Shown here in pieces: positions 23,519-30,194 of a stretch of DNA of 64,000 nt. Where the stretch lies: positions 4,384,001 through 4,448,000 of the forward strand of contig OZ244653.1 of NCBI GenBank assembly GCA_965218795.1, in the 5' to 3' direction. Position numbers and translations under genes: made by a program. The number at the start of each line of letters is the position of its first letter. The stretch's first letter is position 1. This stretch comes from a bacterium. GTDB taxonomy: Bacteria > UBA8248 > JACPRG01 > G963555815. The notes under the pieces were generated by a model. The model saw nothing but the letters and a program-made list of their open reading frames with translations, ran no database searches and was not told where the DNA came from.

Positions 23519-24544
23519 TTACATTGCCTTGTCGCCCAGGGCGGCCTTAATGGCGGGCCACTGGGGGAGGAACCGGTTGGTGTACATGTCTCCCGTCGGA
23601 ACGCGTTTCTTCAGCTTCTGGAGCTTGGTGAGCAACTCGACGGTATTGTCCATTTTCTCGTGGTCCATGTATCCCAAGCCGTGCAGCCGGACTCCCTCGT
23701 CGAACATATACTCAGTATTGATGGCGAAGTGGTGGCGGATGATGGGCTTGCTCATCCCCGGGGCGTACTTGAGGAAGTTCTCGATGGCCTCGTCCGGGTG
23801 GAGGAGCGACCACCCAAAGGCCTCCATGACGGCCTTTACGGCATTGCGAACAAACTTGGGGTTGGACTCGATCGTGGCATCGCGGACGATGACGCCGTTG
23901 CTGTAAACTTTCACGCCCCAGTCTCCGTAGGAGAAATATCCGAGCTCCTTTCCAATCTTGGCGACCGCGATACGGAGTTGGGGTATCTCGGTGACATAGT
24001 AGAGGGCCACATCCTGCTTCCCGCTCAGGAAGGAGGGGAGGACCTGCCCATAACCGATGTTAATCCACTCGATGGTCTTATCGTCGAACCCGTTGGCGGC
24101 GGCAAAGGCCGGGAAAATGACGCGGACGGAGGTGGCTATCGGCGAGCCGATCGTAGCGCCTGCCAAGTCCTTGGGCGTCTTGTAGCCCTTATCTTTGAAG
24201 AAGACAGCGATCATGGGCGTCTTGGCGTGGATCATGGCCACTTCTTTGACCTTGACGTCGCTGTTGCCCCGCGCGTTGACCAGCGAACCGGCATCGGCGA
24301 ACCCGATAGGGGCAATCTTGCTGGCAACGTCCTTGATGGTTCTACCCGAACCGAAGCCCCGCTTGTACTCCACGTCCAGACCCACCTTCTTGTAGAAGCC
24401 CTTGTCCTGGGCTGCGAAGAAAGCCGCGTGTTTTCCATAGACGATCCAGTCCAGCAGGAAGGTGGTTTTTCCAGCGACGGCCTGCCCCGTCAGGCCCCCC
24501 GCCAAGAACAGAAATGCGGCGACGACGACCAAAAGCTTTTTCAT
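23519..24544 (-). CDS. NMT1/THI5-like ABC substrate-binding protein
   Basis: signal peptide, LDW..YGKHAAFF, GFGSG, YTNRFL. Confidence 0.9.
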   Translation of the reverse strand: MKKLLVVVAAFLFLAGGLTGQAVAGKTTFLLDWIVYGKHAAFFAAQDKGFYKKVGLDVEYKRGFGSGRTIKDVASKIAPIGFADAGSLVNARGNSDVKVKEVAMIHAKTPMIAVFFKDKGYKTPKDLAGATIGSPIATSVRVIFPAFAAANGFDDKTIEWINIGYGQVLPSFLSGKQDVALYYVTEIPQLRIAVAKIGKELGYFSYGDWGVKVYSNGVIVRDATIESNPKFVRNAVKAVMEAFGWSLLHPDEAIENFLKYAPGMSKPIIRHHFAINTEYMFDEGVRLHGLGYMDHEKMDNTVELLTKLQKLKKRVPTGDMYTNRFLPQWPAIKAALGDKAM

Positions 24545-25338
24545 GTTTGCACCCCTTTGCCGGTGAGACGGAAATCCAATCCCGGAAAACCCTCTGCCGA
24601 CCTCCCGTTGACACCTGGTTGAACGGAAGTTTCCCATTTCAAATTCAGACAGCCCTCTATTGACCACTCATTGCTGTCTAACCCGATTAGACCCCTCTTT
24701 GCCGGGGCCGTCAAGAGGCTGTCCCATTCTTAGTTGAAGGTTGAAAAAAAGAGGTGGCGGTTCACTCCTGCCGACTCGGTTAGAATTGCCCTGCCCCCTT
24801 TCAAGGGAGTCCAGTTTATAAAAGAGTATTCCTGGATTGTAGAAGGAGGCGAAGGCTGGCCAGGAAGCGGTTTACGGCCGAGCCGATCATCATCAAGCTG
24901 CGAGAGGCGGAGGTGTCCCAGTCCCAAGGGAAGACGGTAGGCCAGGAGTGTAAGCAGATCGGGGGTGACTGAGCAGACCTACGACCGGTGGCGGAAGGCG
25001 TACGGGGGTCTGAGGATGGCCCAGGCCAAGCGTCTGAAGTCCTTGGAGAAGGAGAATGGCCGGCTGAAGAAGCTGGTGGCGGGTCTGTCTGTGGACAATC
25101 AGATTCTGAAGGAAGTCTCCTCGGGAAACTTCCAGGCCCGGCGAAGAGGAGAGGAGCCGTGGTATGGGTACGAGAGCGGTTCGGACCTGAGCGAGTCTGT
25201 GAGCGTCGGGCCTGCCGCGTGCTGGGACAGGCTCGATCGACCCAACGAAGAGTCCGACAGATTTCCAAGGAAGAGGGACAATCTGGTGCTCCGGATGGTA
25301 GAACTGGCCAGTCAGTATGGCCGTGTATGGACGCCCCC

Positions 25339-25590
25339 GTGAATGCAAGCGTTTTCTTCGGACAGTTCGGAGCAATGTGGTCAGGTGCAGTCGTGTATCC
25401 GGCCTTCTGATGCGGCGGGTCACACGCCGCGGGCCCGTATGGAGATGCGCGGACCAGGTCCAAATCGGTACGGCGAGCTCGAGGGCTCTTGGCCATACCC
25501 TAGGTTTTCCCGATCCCGTCTCGTTGACCGTTGTCCCTTACCCGTCCTCCGACCTGCTCACATGTCCGACGTCATCCGCGCGCCTGTCGC
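25339..25590 (-). ncRNA. putative bridge/seek RNA in the IS1111 3' non-coding end
   Basis: contains segments matching the flanking target (CGGTACGGC 25466-25474; TGGCCATAC 25490-25498) and the circle junction (TCGTGTAT 25391-25398). Confidence 0.75.
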
Positions 25591-26615
25591 TCAGACGGCC
25601 GGCGCCGGCTCCCGATAGACCGCTTTCTTCGTCATCAACGCCCAGGCGGTCCGCGCCATTCGATTCGCCAGCGCCACCGCGACCAGCATCCGCGGCTTGC
25701 GCGCCAGCATCCGAGCCAGCCATGAGCCTGCCGGCGCACCGCGCCAGGCCGCCCAACGGACCACCGCCATCGCGCCCGTGATCAACAGCCGCCTGACATC
25801 GCGCTGGCCCATCTTCGATATCTTGCCCAGCCGCGGCTTGCCTCCGGTGGAGTTCTGCCGCGGGACAAGCCCGAGCCAGGCCGAGAAGTCACGGCCGCGC
25901 CGGAAGCTTTCCATCGGCGGCGCGAAGGCCTGGATCGCCATCGCACTGATCGACCCGATCCCCGGGATGGTCATCAGACGTCTCGCCTCTTCGTCCTGGC
26001 GCGCACCCGTGTGGAGTTGCCTGTCCAACTCCCGAATCTTCTCGTTCAGGCCGGCAATCTGATCAAGCAGAACACCGCCCAGCTCGCGGACCGCCTCGGG
26101 CAGCCCCGAGCCCGGCTCTGCAAGGGCCAACGCCAGCCGGCCCACATACGCCAGTCCCTACGGAGCGATGACCCCGAACTCCGCCAAGTGGCCCCGTAGC
26201 GCGTTGATGGTCTGCGTGCGCTGGCGCACCAGCAAATCGCGCGTGCGGAACAGCATCCCGTGGGCCTGCTGGCCCTCCGTCTTCACGGCCACAAAGCGCA
26301 TGGTCGGGCGAGAGGCCGCCTCGCAGATCGCCTCCGCCTCCGCGGCGTCGTTCTTGTGACGCTTGACGAAGGGTTTCACATAGACCGGCGGCATGACTTC
26401 ACCTCATGGCCAAGCTTGCCGATCTCACGACCCCAATAGTGCGCGCTCGCACATGCCTCCATCGCAACCAGACAGCGTGGGTGCGAGGCCAGAAAGTCCA
26501 GCACTTTCCCCCTGGTCAGCTTCTTGCGGAATGCAACCGATCCGTCCGTCCGCGCACCGTGCAGTTGAAAGCCTTGTTTCGCCAAATCGATGCCGATGAT
26601 GTTCACTTGTTCCAT
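25591..26615 (-). pseudogene. IS110 recombinase (DEDD + Tnp), frameshift and internal stop
   Basis: IGIDLAK, MEAC, KNDAAEAEAI, TIPGIG, GLVPRQNSTGGK. Confidence 0.9.
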
Positions 26616-27135
26616 GGACGCTTCCTCCTTCAGGGGTTGAACACGACACCACCTTGCCACAACGTGATGCCGTCGGGAGGGGGCGTCCACCCCATCGGTA
26701 CGGCTACCGGAGGATCACGGCGATTCTTCGCCTTAGAGGGGTGGAAGGTGAACCCCATAGGGAGTGGAAAGGCTTTGGAGACAGGAAGGGCTGAAGGTCC
26801 CGTCCAGACAGCCGAAACGAAGGAGACTGTGGCTCCATGACGGGTCCTGCGTGCGCCTGAGACCGACTCATCGGAACCATGTCTGGAGCTATGCCTTCAT
26901 GCATGAGCGTACCCAAAAGGGGAGGGCTTTCCGGCTGCTGACCATTTGGATGCGTACAGCCGGGAATGTTGTTCCATTGATGCCCCAAGGCAGATGAATC
27001 ACCAGGATGTGCTGGAAAGGACCCGACGAAATCTCCAGGTTGATGGAGAATCTAGGTAAGACTAGCCGGGCGTGTTAACGAAAAAGCGAATGAACGCTTT
27101 CGTCGCTTCTCTTCTTCGAATACCATCGTCGGGCT

Positions 27136-27893
27136 TCAACCTTTTCCGTCATTGCCCAGGACGTCACAAGACGCCAATAACTGTTTTGCAATAGCTTCCG
27201 CCGGCACTCGGACCCATTCCTGGTGTACAAACGTGAATGCGAGCATATGTACGAGAGTGAACAAGCAGCCGGCCCATGTGGGCTTATCGATAGCCTGGAG
27301 CATGATGTAGCGTCGCCCTTCCATGAGACGGCTATGGCAGCCACTATGGCTGCAATGACCAAACCGTCGACAAGAAGTGCAAGCGGTTTGAGCGCCCATA
27401 TATTTCGCCGAAAGCCGTAGTTGACGTTCTCCTCGAAGATGAGCCGGAACCTCTCGCGATCCGTCACTTGAGCTAGCAGCCAAGCCGTGGCACTCTCGTA
27501 TCCTTCGTCGGCCTTTGTTGGAGACCTCTTTTCGTCTTGCGGCGTCGCCAGCTTCAGTTGGGGAACGTTGCGCTCCAAAAATGCCCGATACCGATCCTTT
27601 GCCGCCGTCGGGATGCGCGCATCACGATGCCGTAGCATCACTACGGACGGCTTCCCGCCCCACGCTTGAAACAGGTTCGGTTCAAGTGCTTTCCCTCGAT
27701 CCCGCCCAAACTGCGTCAACCACGTTGCGCCACCGCAATAAACCACCAATCCGATGACGGCCGCCCACGTTGACTGAAATTCTGGAACAAGAAGCGCGAA
27801 GACAACCAAGATGGGCAGCAGGGTCAGAAGCGCTGGCTGAAGCCGGGCCTTCCGATTGTAGGGGTCGCTGATGAGTGTTTCGATGTTGAGCAT
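27136..27893 (-). pseudogene. multi-pass membrane protein of the defence operon, frameshift near 27310
   Basis: N-terminal TM pair, WGGKPS, FEENVNYGFRRN, further TM segments; true C-terminus QLLASCDVL is in the 27136 frame. Confidence 0.7.
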
Positions 27894-30194
27894 TTAGGCG
27901 CTCCCAACAGCAGCGTCTGTTGCATCAGCAAGAAGCGCATGAATAGCGGCCGGCGTTTGGATCAACAGAATTGCCGGCGTCAGGCGTGCTACCGATACTG
28001 CGGTTGCCGTCGAGCGATCCATCGGGGATGGGTCACTGGGAGAAAGATGACTGTGCCAAGTGCCAAGGCAATAGAGCGACCAACCGCTTGACTCCGAATA
28101 GGCTTTTAGACGTTGGCGAAGCCCTTTCGTCCCGAGGACAAACTCACTCGCGGAGCGGGTACTATCCTCAGGCGCTTCCAGTACATCAACCACATGGAAG
28201 GTGTGGGACACTTCTGACAATCGTCCAACGAGCACGCCGCCGGTCTCGACCTGGGGCCGGTTCGCAGTTTCCTCCTGGATTTTTGCCAGTGCACGCGAGT
28301 GAATGCGAACGCGCCAGGCTTCTCCATTGATTGTGCCAACTTCGGTCACCGGAGGGACTTTGTGTGCGCGCCACTTGAGACCAATCTCGCGTTCGGACAG
28401 CTGACCTAAAAGGACTTCACCGCTGTCCCCAGGGAGGCCGTCGCGTTGCTTTCCCAACAGGTATTCGGACATGCCGGCCGCGAAAAGCGAAAGCCGTCCA
28501 TCGGACATGGTCATCGTCAGGGAGCCGCAGCCTTGGCCGAGAGCCTGCCGGGATGCCGTGTCATCGGCTCCAAATATGAGTGACGCCATAGTCGCGTCCT
28601 CCCGAATGAGGGCGTAGCACTCTGCCATGAGGTCGCCGGTGTTAGGGTTGCGCTCAGGTCCCTCGACAGTGACCATCCCGACGGCGCCGCCAGCGAATAG
28701 GGATGTTTCGATCACGCGGGCAGGCAGCCGGTTATTTGAGGCAAGCGCTTCTCGGACAACAAGCGATGCGGTTATGTTTACAACTGCCCACGACCGCTTC
28801 GACCAGGGACGGCTGACCTTGCATTTAGACTCCAAGATTCTCACGGCGTTCGCAAGGATCGGCGTTGCTTCCTGTTCAAGTCCATGTAATGCCCCGCACA
28901 GCGACCGGGCTTTGGCATCCATCCAGAGGAGCTGCATATCCCCCGTCGTGGGGATGAGCGCATGCCGCGCCGCGTTGTGCGGCGTCATCGACGACTGGTC
29001 GATGACAACCTCGGGGCCGTTCCCGGCGCGCGCGAGATGGAGCGCCAACTTGGATCCCAGACTATCGGCACCAATCAGTGTCCACCGTGGCCGTTCGGAA
29101 GTTGCCGCGTGGCCTGCCATCTGGGCGAGGAGGGCGCGGGTTATCGCATTGCGATGTGCGGCCGGTCGCACTGGTGTCGCGCCATCATCAGAAGACAAGT
29201 CGGGCGAGTAAATGTCCATGACATACGGGCACAACTCGATGGGACTCTGGCTGCCGATAACCTTGTAAGGTCGACGCGCCAAAAGCACCACGGCGAGCGG
29301 GAATGGCCCCATCTTGGAAACTCTGGATAGGCATCGCTTGAGCCACTTGAGCCCGTTATCGAGTTCAGCGGCACAGCCATAGAGCTTAGCGCGATCTCGA
29401 AGCTCATCGACATTGGTTACGGCTTCGGGAAGGTATGTATCGCAGACAATCAACTTGCCAGACGGCTGTTTTCCAGGCCACACGACCATTGCCAGCGACC
29501 GGCCGTGTCGTAGTTGGGCGTCCTTGCCAACCGCCGCTTCTCTGAAGATACTCGGTACGGTTTTGCGGTTGATTTGAGGGATTACGGTTTTAATCTGGCC
29601 GTGAATGGCGCCCAATGCGCCGTTAGTGACAAGTCGCAAGTAATCGAGTTCAAAGAAACTGTATCCGCCGTCACGGTTCACCAATCCGCGCAGCCCTTCG
29701 GCGTCGGCGATGAGGTCATCTTCGAAGCTATCACGCCGAACAGGTTCCCAACCTTGTTTCGGGTCGATGAGTGTGCCCATGGCTGCACGTTCAAGCCAAA
29801 CTGCGGTCTGATTTAGGATGCCGGCTAACCCTTCCAGCTGGAGCAGTTCGGCCAGGTTGCCATCGTAGAGGCAGGGCACGGGCCGCCCATCCGTCAACCA
29901 CGGCTGCATGTGTGGCAGATTCCGGTTGAAGTCAGGGCGCAGCGATACTTCGGGTGGGTCAAGCGGGAATCCACTCGGAAAGTCGAAGCGCACGACCTCC
30001 TGAAGCCTGACACCCGATGGACTCGAGCCCTGCCGCTTCCAGCGGCTTGGTAGGTGCACGTCGAACGTCACGTCCACCGCGGTTGTCCCAGTCACTTTGT
30101 CAAAGGATGGAATCCCGACCAGAGATACGGCAGGATGGTCGGACACCAGAGCCAGCGCTCGCAAGATCGTTTTACTGGGCCGGACGTCCGCCAT
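27894..30194 (-). CDS. E2-E1(ThiF)-JAB fusion protein (Cap2/Cap3-like)
   Basis: E2 PH...VPCLY; E1 LIGADSLGS, HNAARH, GQGCGS; JAB ETGG...WHSH...PSPMD. Confidence 0.9.
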   Translation of the reverse strand: MADVRPSKTILRALALVSDHPAVSLVGIPSFDKVTGTTAVDVTFDVHLPSRWKRQGSSPSGVRLQEVVRFDFPSGFPLDPPEVSLRPDFNRNLPHMQPWLTDGRPVPCLYDGNLAELLQLEGLAGILNQTAVWLERAAMGTLIDPKQGWEPVRRDSFEDDLIADAEGLRGLVNRDGGYSFFELDYLRLVTNGALGAIHGQIKTVIPQINRKTVPSIFREAAVGKDAQLRHGRSLAMVVWPGKQPSGKLIVCDTYLPEAVTNVDELRDRAKLYGCAAELDNGLKWLKRCLSRVSKMGPFPLAVVLLARRPYKVIGSQSPIELCPYVMDIYSPDLSSDDGATPVRPAAHRNAITRALLAQMAGHAATSERPRWTLIGADSLGSKLALHLARAGNGPEVVIDQSSMTPHNAARHALIPTTGDMQLLWMDAKARSLCGALHGLEQEATPILANAVRILESKCKVSRPWSKRSWAVVNITASLVVREALASNNRLPARVIETSLFAGGAVGMVTVEGPERNPNTGDLMAECYALIREDATMASLIFGADDTASRQALGQGCGSLTMTMSDGRLSLFAAGMSEYLLGKQRDGLPGDSGEVLLGQLSEREIGLKWRAHKVPPVTEVGTINGEAWRVRIHSRALAKIQEETANRPQVETGGVLVGRLSEVSHTFHVVDVLEAPEDSTRSASEFVLGTKGLRQRLKAYSESSGWSLYCLGTWHSHLSPSDPSPMDRSTATAVSVARLTPAILLIQTPAAIHALLADATDAAVGSA

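Follow-up and report, generated by a model that had tools for sequence, protein, structure and literature searches.

Insertion sequences of the IS110 and IS1111 groups were described in 2024 as carrying bridge RNAs and seekRNAs, which have been predicted for 93% of the catalogued IS1111 elements; the IS621 bridge RNA of the IS110 group is reportedly also treated by Hiraizumi et al. 2024. The described systems closest to the locus analyzed here are ISEc11, ISPa11 and ISKpn4. In the available text of Siddiquee et al. 2024 (PMC11187229), these elements share with ours a DEDD recombinase of ~340 amino acids with the motif GL-P----(S/T)G (GLVPRQNSTG here), subterminal inverted repeats, a long non-coding end downstream of the gene, and target matches on opposite strands that overlap at the insertion point, the top-strand match lying 5'. 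Their long seekRNA is of similar length (145-170 nt, compared with ~150 nt between the two sides of the closing stem in this element). In contrast, our element belongs to a different subfamily, found mostly in uncultured bacteria, its target and its CG core differ from theirs, and the copy here is broken and known from sequence alone.

The IS621 bridge RNA, as presented in the available text of Durrant et al. 2024 (PMC11208160), follows the same four-guide logic, in which the left target guide (LTG) and left donor guide (LDG) equal the top strand including the core, the right target guide (RTG) and right donor guide (RDG) are complementary, and the core dinucleotide is common to target and donor. 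The element described here differs from IS621 in carrying its RNA in the right end rather than the left, in a reversed guide order, in donor guides that would be placed at a three-way junction instead of in a plain internal loop, in a 10-bp subterminal repeat and in a core of CG rather than CT. A three-way junction containing the donor nucleotides is described for many IS1111 orthologues in the same source (PMC11208160), whose figure legend also gives ISCARN28, ISAzs32 and ISPa11 as examples from the IS1111 group, their predicted bridge RNAs having loops for target and donor.

Within the window, the whole 64,000-nucleotide stretch of DNA that was analyzed, the 267-nt non-coding end of the element (Table 1) is very probably the gene of a minus-strand bridge RNA (long seekRNA) of ~150 nt, belonging to a decayed element of the IS1111 group. 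The initial annotation had read this end as a bridge or seek RNA with four guides; the RNA and three of the guides stand, supported by covariation in 26 guide sets, but its second donor guide and an argument built on a CG-to-TG change do not.

Membership of the IS110 family was indicated by three minus-strand ORF pieces matching the family's recombinase (Pfam), with PF01548 on the middle piece (E 3e-9), PF02371 on the C-terminal piece (E 6.5e-23) and NCBIfam NF033542, 'IS110 family RNA-guided transposase', also on the C-terminal piece (147.7 bits, cutoff 140). Three features characteristic of the IS1111 group were found: subterminal inverted repeats of 10 bp (7-17 bp in the group) with short extensions of 7 nt on the left and 5 nt on the right; a longer non-coding side downstream of the gene, 267 nt (25324-25590) versus 80 nt upstream (26616-26695); and the GL-P----S(T)G motif, as GLVPRQNSTG, in a protein whose intact relatives have 334-342 aa (330-350 aa in the group). 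An intact reading frame with the full D-E-D-D tetrad was absent from this copy in the alignment with intact relatives, from which L027 was left out because its longest ORF is in the wrong frame. Compared with these relatives, the gene carries a frameshift following GHEVK at about 26395, an in-frame TAG in place of Q (26158-26160), and a change of the fourth catalytic D to E near 26338-26340 (KNDAAEAEAI versus KNDAADAEAI); two disabling lesions were counted in all. Judged by its sequence, this copy is a member of the IS110 family by descent and not a working one, and because its recombinase gene is broken the element is now probably immobile.

The element interrupts an IS3-family transposase gene, recognized by an HTH_Tnp_1 match in the upstream piece, and the same genome contains seven uninterrupted paralogues of the host IS3-family element (L085-L091; 87-90% identity to a 484-base query). 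Aligned with each of the seven, the two flanks overlap by 2 bp, CG being the last two bases of the left flank and the first two of the right flank, which establishes the element boundaries and the CG core and bears out the empty site with a CG core that the initial annotation had reconstructed. The empty paralogous sites read GTACGGC-CG-ATACGG(C/G), one base different from the occupied site on each side. Their match to the guides is 8/9 for LTG and 7/9 for RTG, excluding the RTG's own core mismatch, compared with 9/9 and 8/9 at the occupied site, and all seven near-cognate sites, each two bases away from the occupied one, are empty. The genome holds one full copy of the element and two small remnants. 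One remnant (L002, 1495-1675) is a 180-bp left-end piece, 89.6% identical, that adjoins CG-GTACGCC (6/7 left-flank positions); the other (L003, 1501-1556) is a 56-bp recombinase fragment within another copy of the IS3-family element.

Table 1. Features of the element, its predicted RNA and its insertion site (positions in the window)
Feature	Position	Strand	Description and basis
IS1111-group insertion sequence, IS110 family	25324..26695	-	1,372 bp; left end at 26695, right end at 25324; flank overlap and conserved ends in 66 related loci
Left end	26679..26695	-	start of element: 7-nt extension ATGGGGT (26689-26695), then 10-bp subterminal inverted repeat GGACGCCCCC (26679-26688)
Right end	25324..25338	-	end of element: subterminal inverted repeat GGGGGCGTCC (25329-25338), then 5-nt extension ATACA (25324-25328)
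Core dinucleotide CG, left-end-side copy	26696..26697	.	sequence; empty paralogous sites
Core dinucleotide CG, right-end-side copy	25322..25323	.	sequence; empty paralogous sites
Target flank GTATGGC in host IS3-family gene	25315..25321	+	right target in element orientation
Target flank GTACGGC in host IS3-family gene	26698..26704	+	left target in element orientation
DEDD recombinase pseudogene	25591..26615	-	PF01548, PF02371, NF033542; alignment with intact relatives of 334-342 aa
Predicted bridge RNA / long seekRNA core	25379..25529	-	closed by P1 (GGUCA 25525-25529 with UGACC 25379-25383); RNAalifold, pair counts, covariance model R1
Predicted target-binding arm	25451..25516	-	stem P3 (25509-25516 with 25451-25458) around RTG, hairpin P4 and LTG
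Right target guide (RTG) GUAUGGCCA	25490..25498	-	complement of core + right flank, 8/9
Hairpin P4 (GAGC/GCUC) between target guides	25475..25488	-	both sides changed at one pair in 7 sequences
Left target guide (LTG) GCCGUACCG	25466..25474	-	same as left flank + core, 9/9
Candidate right donor guide UCUCCAU (site b)	25439..25445	-	overlaps 3' strand of stem P2
Predicted arm P5 around hairpin P6	25399..25437	-	P5, GGCC 25432-25435 with GGCC 25401-25404; P6, 25412-25430
Second donor guide of the initial annotation, CCGCAUCA on RNA	25408..25415	-	unsupported
Left donor guide (LDG) AUACACGA	25391..25398	-	right end's last 5 nt + core + left end's first base

Relatives were collected by using the C-terminal 184 aa of the recombinase to search a single genome of each species, which gave 80 loci at 71-91% identity. 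The same end anchors were present in 65 of these, which together with the window made 66 loci with 31 distinct non-coding ends; about 14 loci, without end anchors or too short, were left out. A covariance model of the RNA, R1, scored 168 bits at the window and detected the RNA in 19 of 151 searched genomes, this one included, mostly in a single sister-family genus (16 of its 23 genomes). The closest plasmid-borne relatives in cultured Alphaproteobacteria showed 59-66% identity over the C-terminal 184 aa, and R1 matches lay downstream of genes annotated as 'IS110 family transposase' on plasmids of Methylosinus sp. C49 (L109; 103 bits) and of Rhizobium (100.6 bits); the Gemmobacter plasmid locus L108 gave no R1 match. 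A wider element set had 32 distinct rows, in which the ends were taken by eye in L105, L109, L110, L121 and L123 alone.

Three weaker R1 places in the same genome represent a second IS1111-type family, comprising the identical elements L105 and L106 and a third element, L107, with a homologous RNA scoring 46 and 34 bits to R1, a GA core, the RTG CAUGUCG-UC and the LDG AUAUA-GA. The recombinase gene of L105 is broken up into two frames that overlap (ORFs 149-898 and 882-1421), and L107 seemingly has no right end.

The RNAalifold consensus of the 31 sequences consists of a closing stem P1 (GGUCA/UGACC), P2 (GAGA/UCUC), an 8-bp P3, the hairpin P4, P5 (GGCC/GGCC) and the hairpin P6. Cells at the proposed pairs were paired in 98.4% of cases, compared with 24-46% in controls slid by 1-3 columns, the structure tested having been derived from the same alignment. 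Five pairs showed compensatory changes, and the covariation score was reached by none of 500 shuffles. The GAGC/GCTC mini-hairpin of the initial annotation is P4, where the changes on both sides in seven sequences gave, for example, GGGC/GCCC and GUGC/GCAC. In P3, two pairs showed compensatory change; P5 had GC-to-AU covariation in two sequences; and both P6 and P3 were compensated in the second family (GCAGG/CCUGC). Stems P1 and P6 showed little covariation because they hardly vary within the family. Many changes in P3 were A-U to G-U, and the window's own P3 contains two G-U pairs; these pairs and changes fit a minus-strand RNA alone.

The span from P1 to P1 is 151 nt, within the 145-170 nt given for long seekRNAs in the available text of PMC11187229 and a table in PMC13604230. 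When a single sequence was folded, the minus strand of the window gave a z-score of -1.77, with 10 of 200 shuffles as good and hence no clear advantage over shuffled sequence, and the plus strand +0.84; the minimum-energy fold of the single sequence, which pairs the guides with each other, was discarded. A scan of positions 24000-28000 with Rfam 15 at E up to 1 found no bridge RNA family, its sole match being a plant-virus xrRNA (E 0.24) outside the element.

All four strings that the initial annotation had taken for guides are present where it placed them, and to gauge chance the 267-nt non-coding end was shuffled 5,000 times with its dinucleotides preserved. The LTG's 9/9 match was equalled in 10 shuffles, the 8/9 match of the RTG in 200 and the 8/8 circle-junction word of the LDG in 28, while a joint test of LTG, RTG and LDG, in which the LDG was scored with a different 8-letter word (7/8 observed), was reached by none. 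The one RTG mismatch lies opposite the first core base, CA being found where CG is expected.

In the relatives, the guides were defined following the available text of PMC11208160, the LTG as the top strand of left flank plus core and the RTG as the complement of core plus right flank. In the alignment of the 31 distinct non-coding ends, the scaffold is strongly conserved (mean column identity 78%), and its hypervariable blocks coincide exactly with the proposed guides. Among 26 distinct guide sets, cognate matches between guides and flanks averaged 7.4/9 for LTG and 6.7/9 for RTG, compared with ~4.0/9 for non-cognate combinations, and the observed total was reached by none of 20,000 permutations, a test that is conservative because close relatives share targets. 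For the RTG, 0-2 extra bases were allowed, in cognate and non-cognate combinations alike, because some relatives have one or two additional bases before the hairpin and a single register fails. The core covaries as well, elements flanked by TG having UG in the LTG and CA in the RTG. This covariation across homologues supports both target guides of the initial annotation, at 25466-25474 and 25490-25498. On the minus-strand RNA the RTG, which complements the top strand, lies 5' of the LTG, which complements the bottom strand; this agrees with the order given for IS1111 seekRNAs in the available text of PMC11187229.

Each single guide match is short, and the matches could in principle be chance or captured leftovers of flanking DNA with no RNA behind them. 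We regard this as extremely improbable in view of the joint shuffle test, the family-wide covariation, and a conserved structure with compensatory changes and strand-specific G-U pairs. From these comparisons and those of the donor side given below, we infer that LTG, RTG and LDG are real guides.

The LDG block reads GG-AUACA-CG-A, and its seven letters for the core and the five terminal bases of the right end were exact in 62 of the 66 loci, as the initial annotation would have it for the circle-junction guide at 25391-25398. The rule covers six LDG variants, CG and TG cores and at least eight combinations in these loci, and holds further for ATGTA-CG in L121 and L123, for ATACA-TG in the Methylosinus plasmid element, for a Rhizobium plasmid element and for ATATA-GA in the second family of this genome. 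The four exceptions (L005, L006, L011 and L025) differ solely in the core copy on the right-end side, which is CA. These four loci have CG at the left end and CA at the right end, and CA is what their RTG expects; the unlike core copies may be a trace of recombination between unlike cores.

The behavior of the LDG bears on whether the RNA reads the donor at all. A seekRNA concerned only with the target, with the protein recognizing the ends through the subterminal inverted repeats and the LDG identity having some other cause, would accord with the available text of PMC11187229, in which a short seekRNA of 70-100 nt with target matches only was enough for ISEc11 movement and the role of the long form was left open; the long subterminal repeats of IS1111 elements could also be read by protein. 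This explanation appears very unlikely, since the LDG tracks the right-end extension together with the core in at least eight combinations in the 66 loci and in more in the further elements, the right-end extension lies outside the inverted repeat, and pairing within the RNA cannot account for the identity because the two copies have the same sense. An RNA that also reads the donor through the LDG is the reading that we retain.

The position of the right donor guide is less clear, and covariation cannot place it because positions 1-4 of the left end are invariant in all 66 loci. The initial annotation put this guide at 25408-25415, where TGATGCGG gives a 6/8 match, in the internal loop between P6 and P5. 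A match this good was reached by 4,311 of 5,000 shuffles, which is chance level, and CCGC, four of the eight letters, falls within the invariant stem P6 (GCGGC/GCCGC). The remaining word, CAUCA within CCGCAUCA, is present in all TG-core relatives, where it is the exact complement of TG-ATG, and its location on the 5' side of the LDG is the one that the reversed order of IS1111 guides would predict; a short and imperfect match is also conceivable because the IS621 RDG pairs discontiguously, as stated in the available text of PMC11208160. Against it, the words of CG-core relatives vary at this place (CAUCA, CAUAG, CAUUG, CACCA, CAGCG and others) without any change in their left end or core, and the second family has CACAAAC or GCAAAC there, with no CAU, and shows a 7/7 complement of its left end elsewhere, at the site discussed next. 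The accompanying argument, that this second guide shows the same CG-to-TG change, fell away because CAUCA is equally common in CG-core and TG-core relatives. On balance, CAUCA is unlikely to be the second donor guide.

A better candidate is UCUCCAU (site b), which can pair with positions 1-6 of the left end with one G-U pair and which lies opposite the LDG across the P5/P6 arm, as the RTG lies opposite the LTG across hairpin P4. In the second family the homologous AUUCCAU is the exact 7/7 complement of the left end ATGGAAT, and in the Methylosinus element CUCCAU complements ATGGAG. Across the loci, site b pairs with 5-7 positions of a left end that barely varies, with a C-A mismatch at left-end position 6 in 5 of 66 loci, and four letters of UCUCCAU also form stem P2. 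Weighing these points, we consider the assignment of site b as the right donor guide to be about evenly balanced.

We propose that the RNA would fold into a three-way junction that itself contains the donor nucleotides. The target arm would form an internal loop presenting the RTG, a small hairpin and the LTG; the LDG would lie in the junction strand after the second stem-loop arm, with UCUCCAU across that arm. By analogy with IS621 and ISEc11, a complex of recombinase and RNA would pair the target guides with opposite strands of GCCGTAC-CG-GCCATAC and the donor guides with the junction of the circle (right end-CG-left end), and strand exchange would take place at the common CG. In this genome, the target that the element used is the IS3-family transposase gene.

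A scan of positions 25200-26800 found no promoter-like (consensus) or terminator-like site. Seven rows of public runs were available, one of them an RNA library with 0.04 of the sampled words, and contigs of four of the seven (X1, X2, X4 and X7) were compared. The RNA library yielded one 181-nt contig of depth 2.8 covering 25283-25436 with five differing letters and crossing the right-end junction; we do not take it as evidence of expression because such contigs have neither strand nor ends and DNA may be present in such libraries. The circle junction occurred in no contig of the four runs compared; contigs that pass from 25323 to 26699 with a single A in between, and so lack the element, agree with the empty paralogous sites rather than with this locus. 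According to the available text of PMC11187229, transcription in ISEc11 is presumed to begin at a promoter created in the circular form, and for this reason an inactive linear copy may be silent. All 31 aligned ends carry GCTTGCAT, almost without variation, at a distance of 19 nt from the right end (window ~25348-25353, TTGCAT, minus strand). As is reported for ISEc11, joining of the ends in the circle might complete a promoter, of which this word would supply the -35 half.

Taken as a whole, the 267-nt end is an ordinary but well-preserved guide-RNA gene of a dead IS1111-group element and nothing new in principle. What it offers is a clean set of natural data on an IS1111 subfamily, with 26 guide sets and three cores (CG, TG and GA), together with an explicit three-way-junction model in which the right donor guide has two candidate positions open to testing. 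The tracking of the right end by the LDG bears in addition on the role of the long seekRNA, left open for IS1111 in the available text of PMC11187229.

Four relatives (L009, L017, L008 and L013) are inserted inside the bridge-RNA genes of siblings (also L118:2794-2952 and L116:2798-2953, alignment A3). The site occupied by L009 and L017, GGGCAAA-CG-GTCAA, belongs to the P1 stem region of an L051-type end, and that occupied by L008 and L013, AGGC-CG-GAUACACG, to the boundary of P5 and LDG in an L015-type end; in each case the guides match the sites in the sibling scaffold and the flanks overlap by the 2-bp core. The L009-type junction was also found in a metagenome contig. It is possible, though we would put it forward only tentatively, that this IS1111 subfamily, whose guides in the window are directed at a conserved part of the IS3-family gene, has been redirected in nature towards other mobile elements, the bridge-RNA genes of siblings among them. 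If this were so, and selected rather than incidental, it could represent RNA-guided insertional inactivation of rivals or the use of rivals as safe landing pads. A literature search gave no account of IS1111 elements that target genes of the IS3 family or that sit within the ends of siblings, although one may still exist in print.

A different arrangement of ends was seen in L110, on the Ti plasmid of Rhizobium sp. L51/94, where the right terminus CGTCCACACA occurs three times in tandem, ~40-70 nt after the RNA match, and the RTG has a 9/9 match to the flank beyond the third of these termini.
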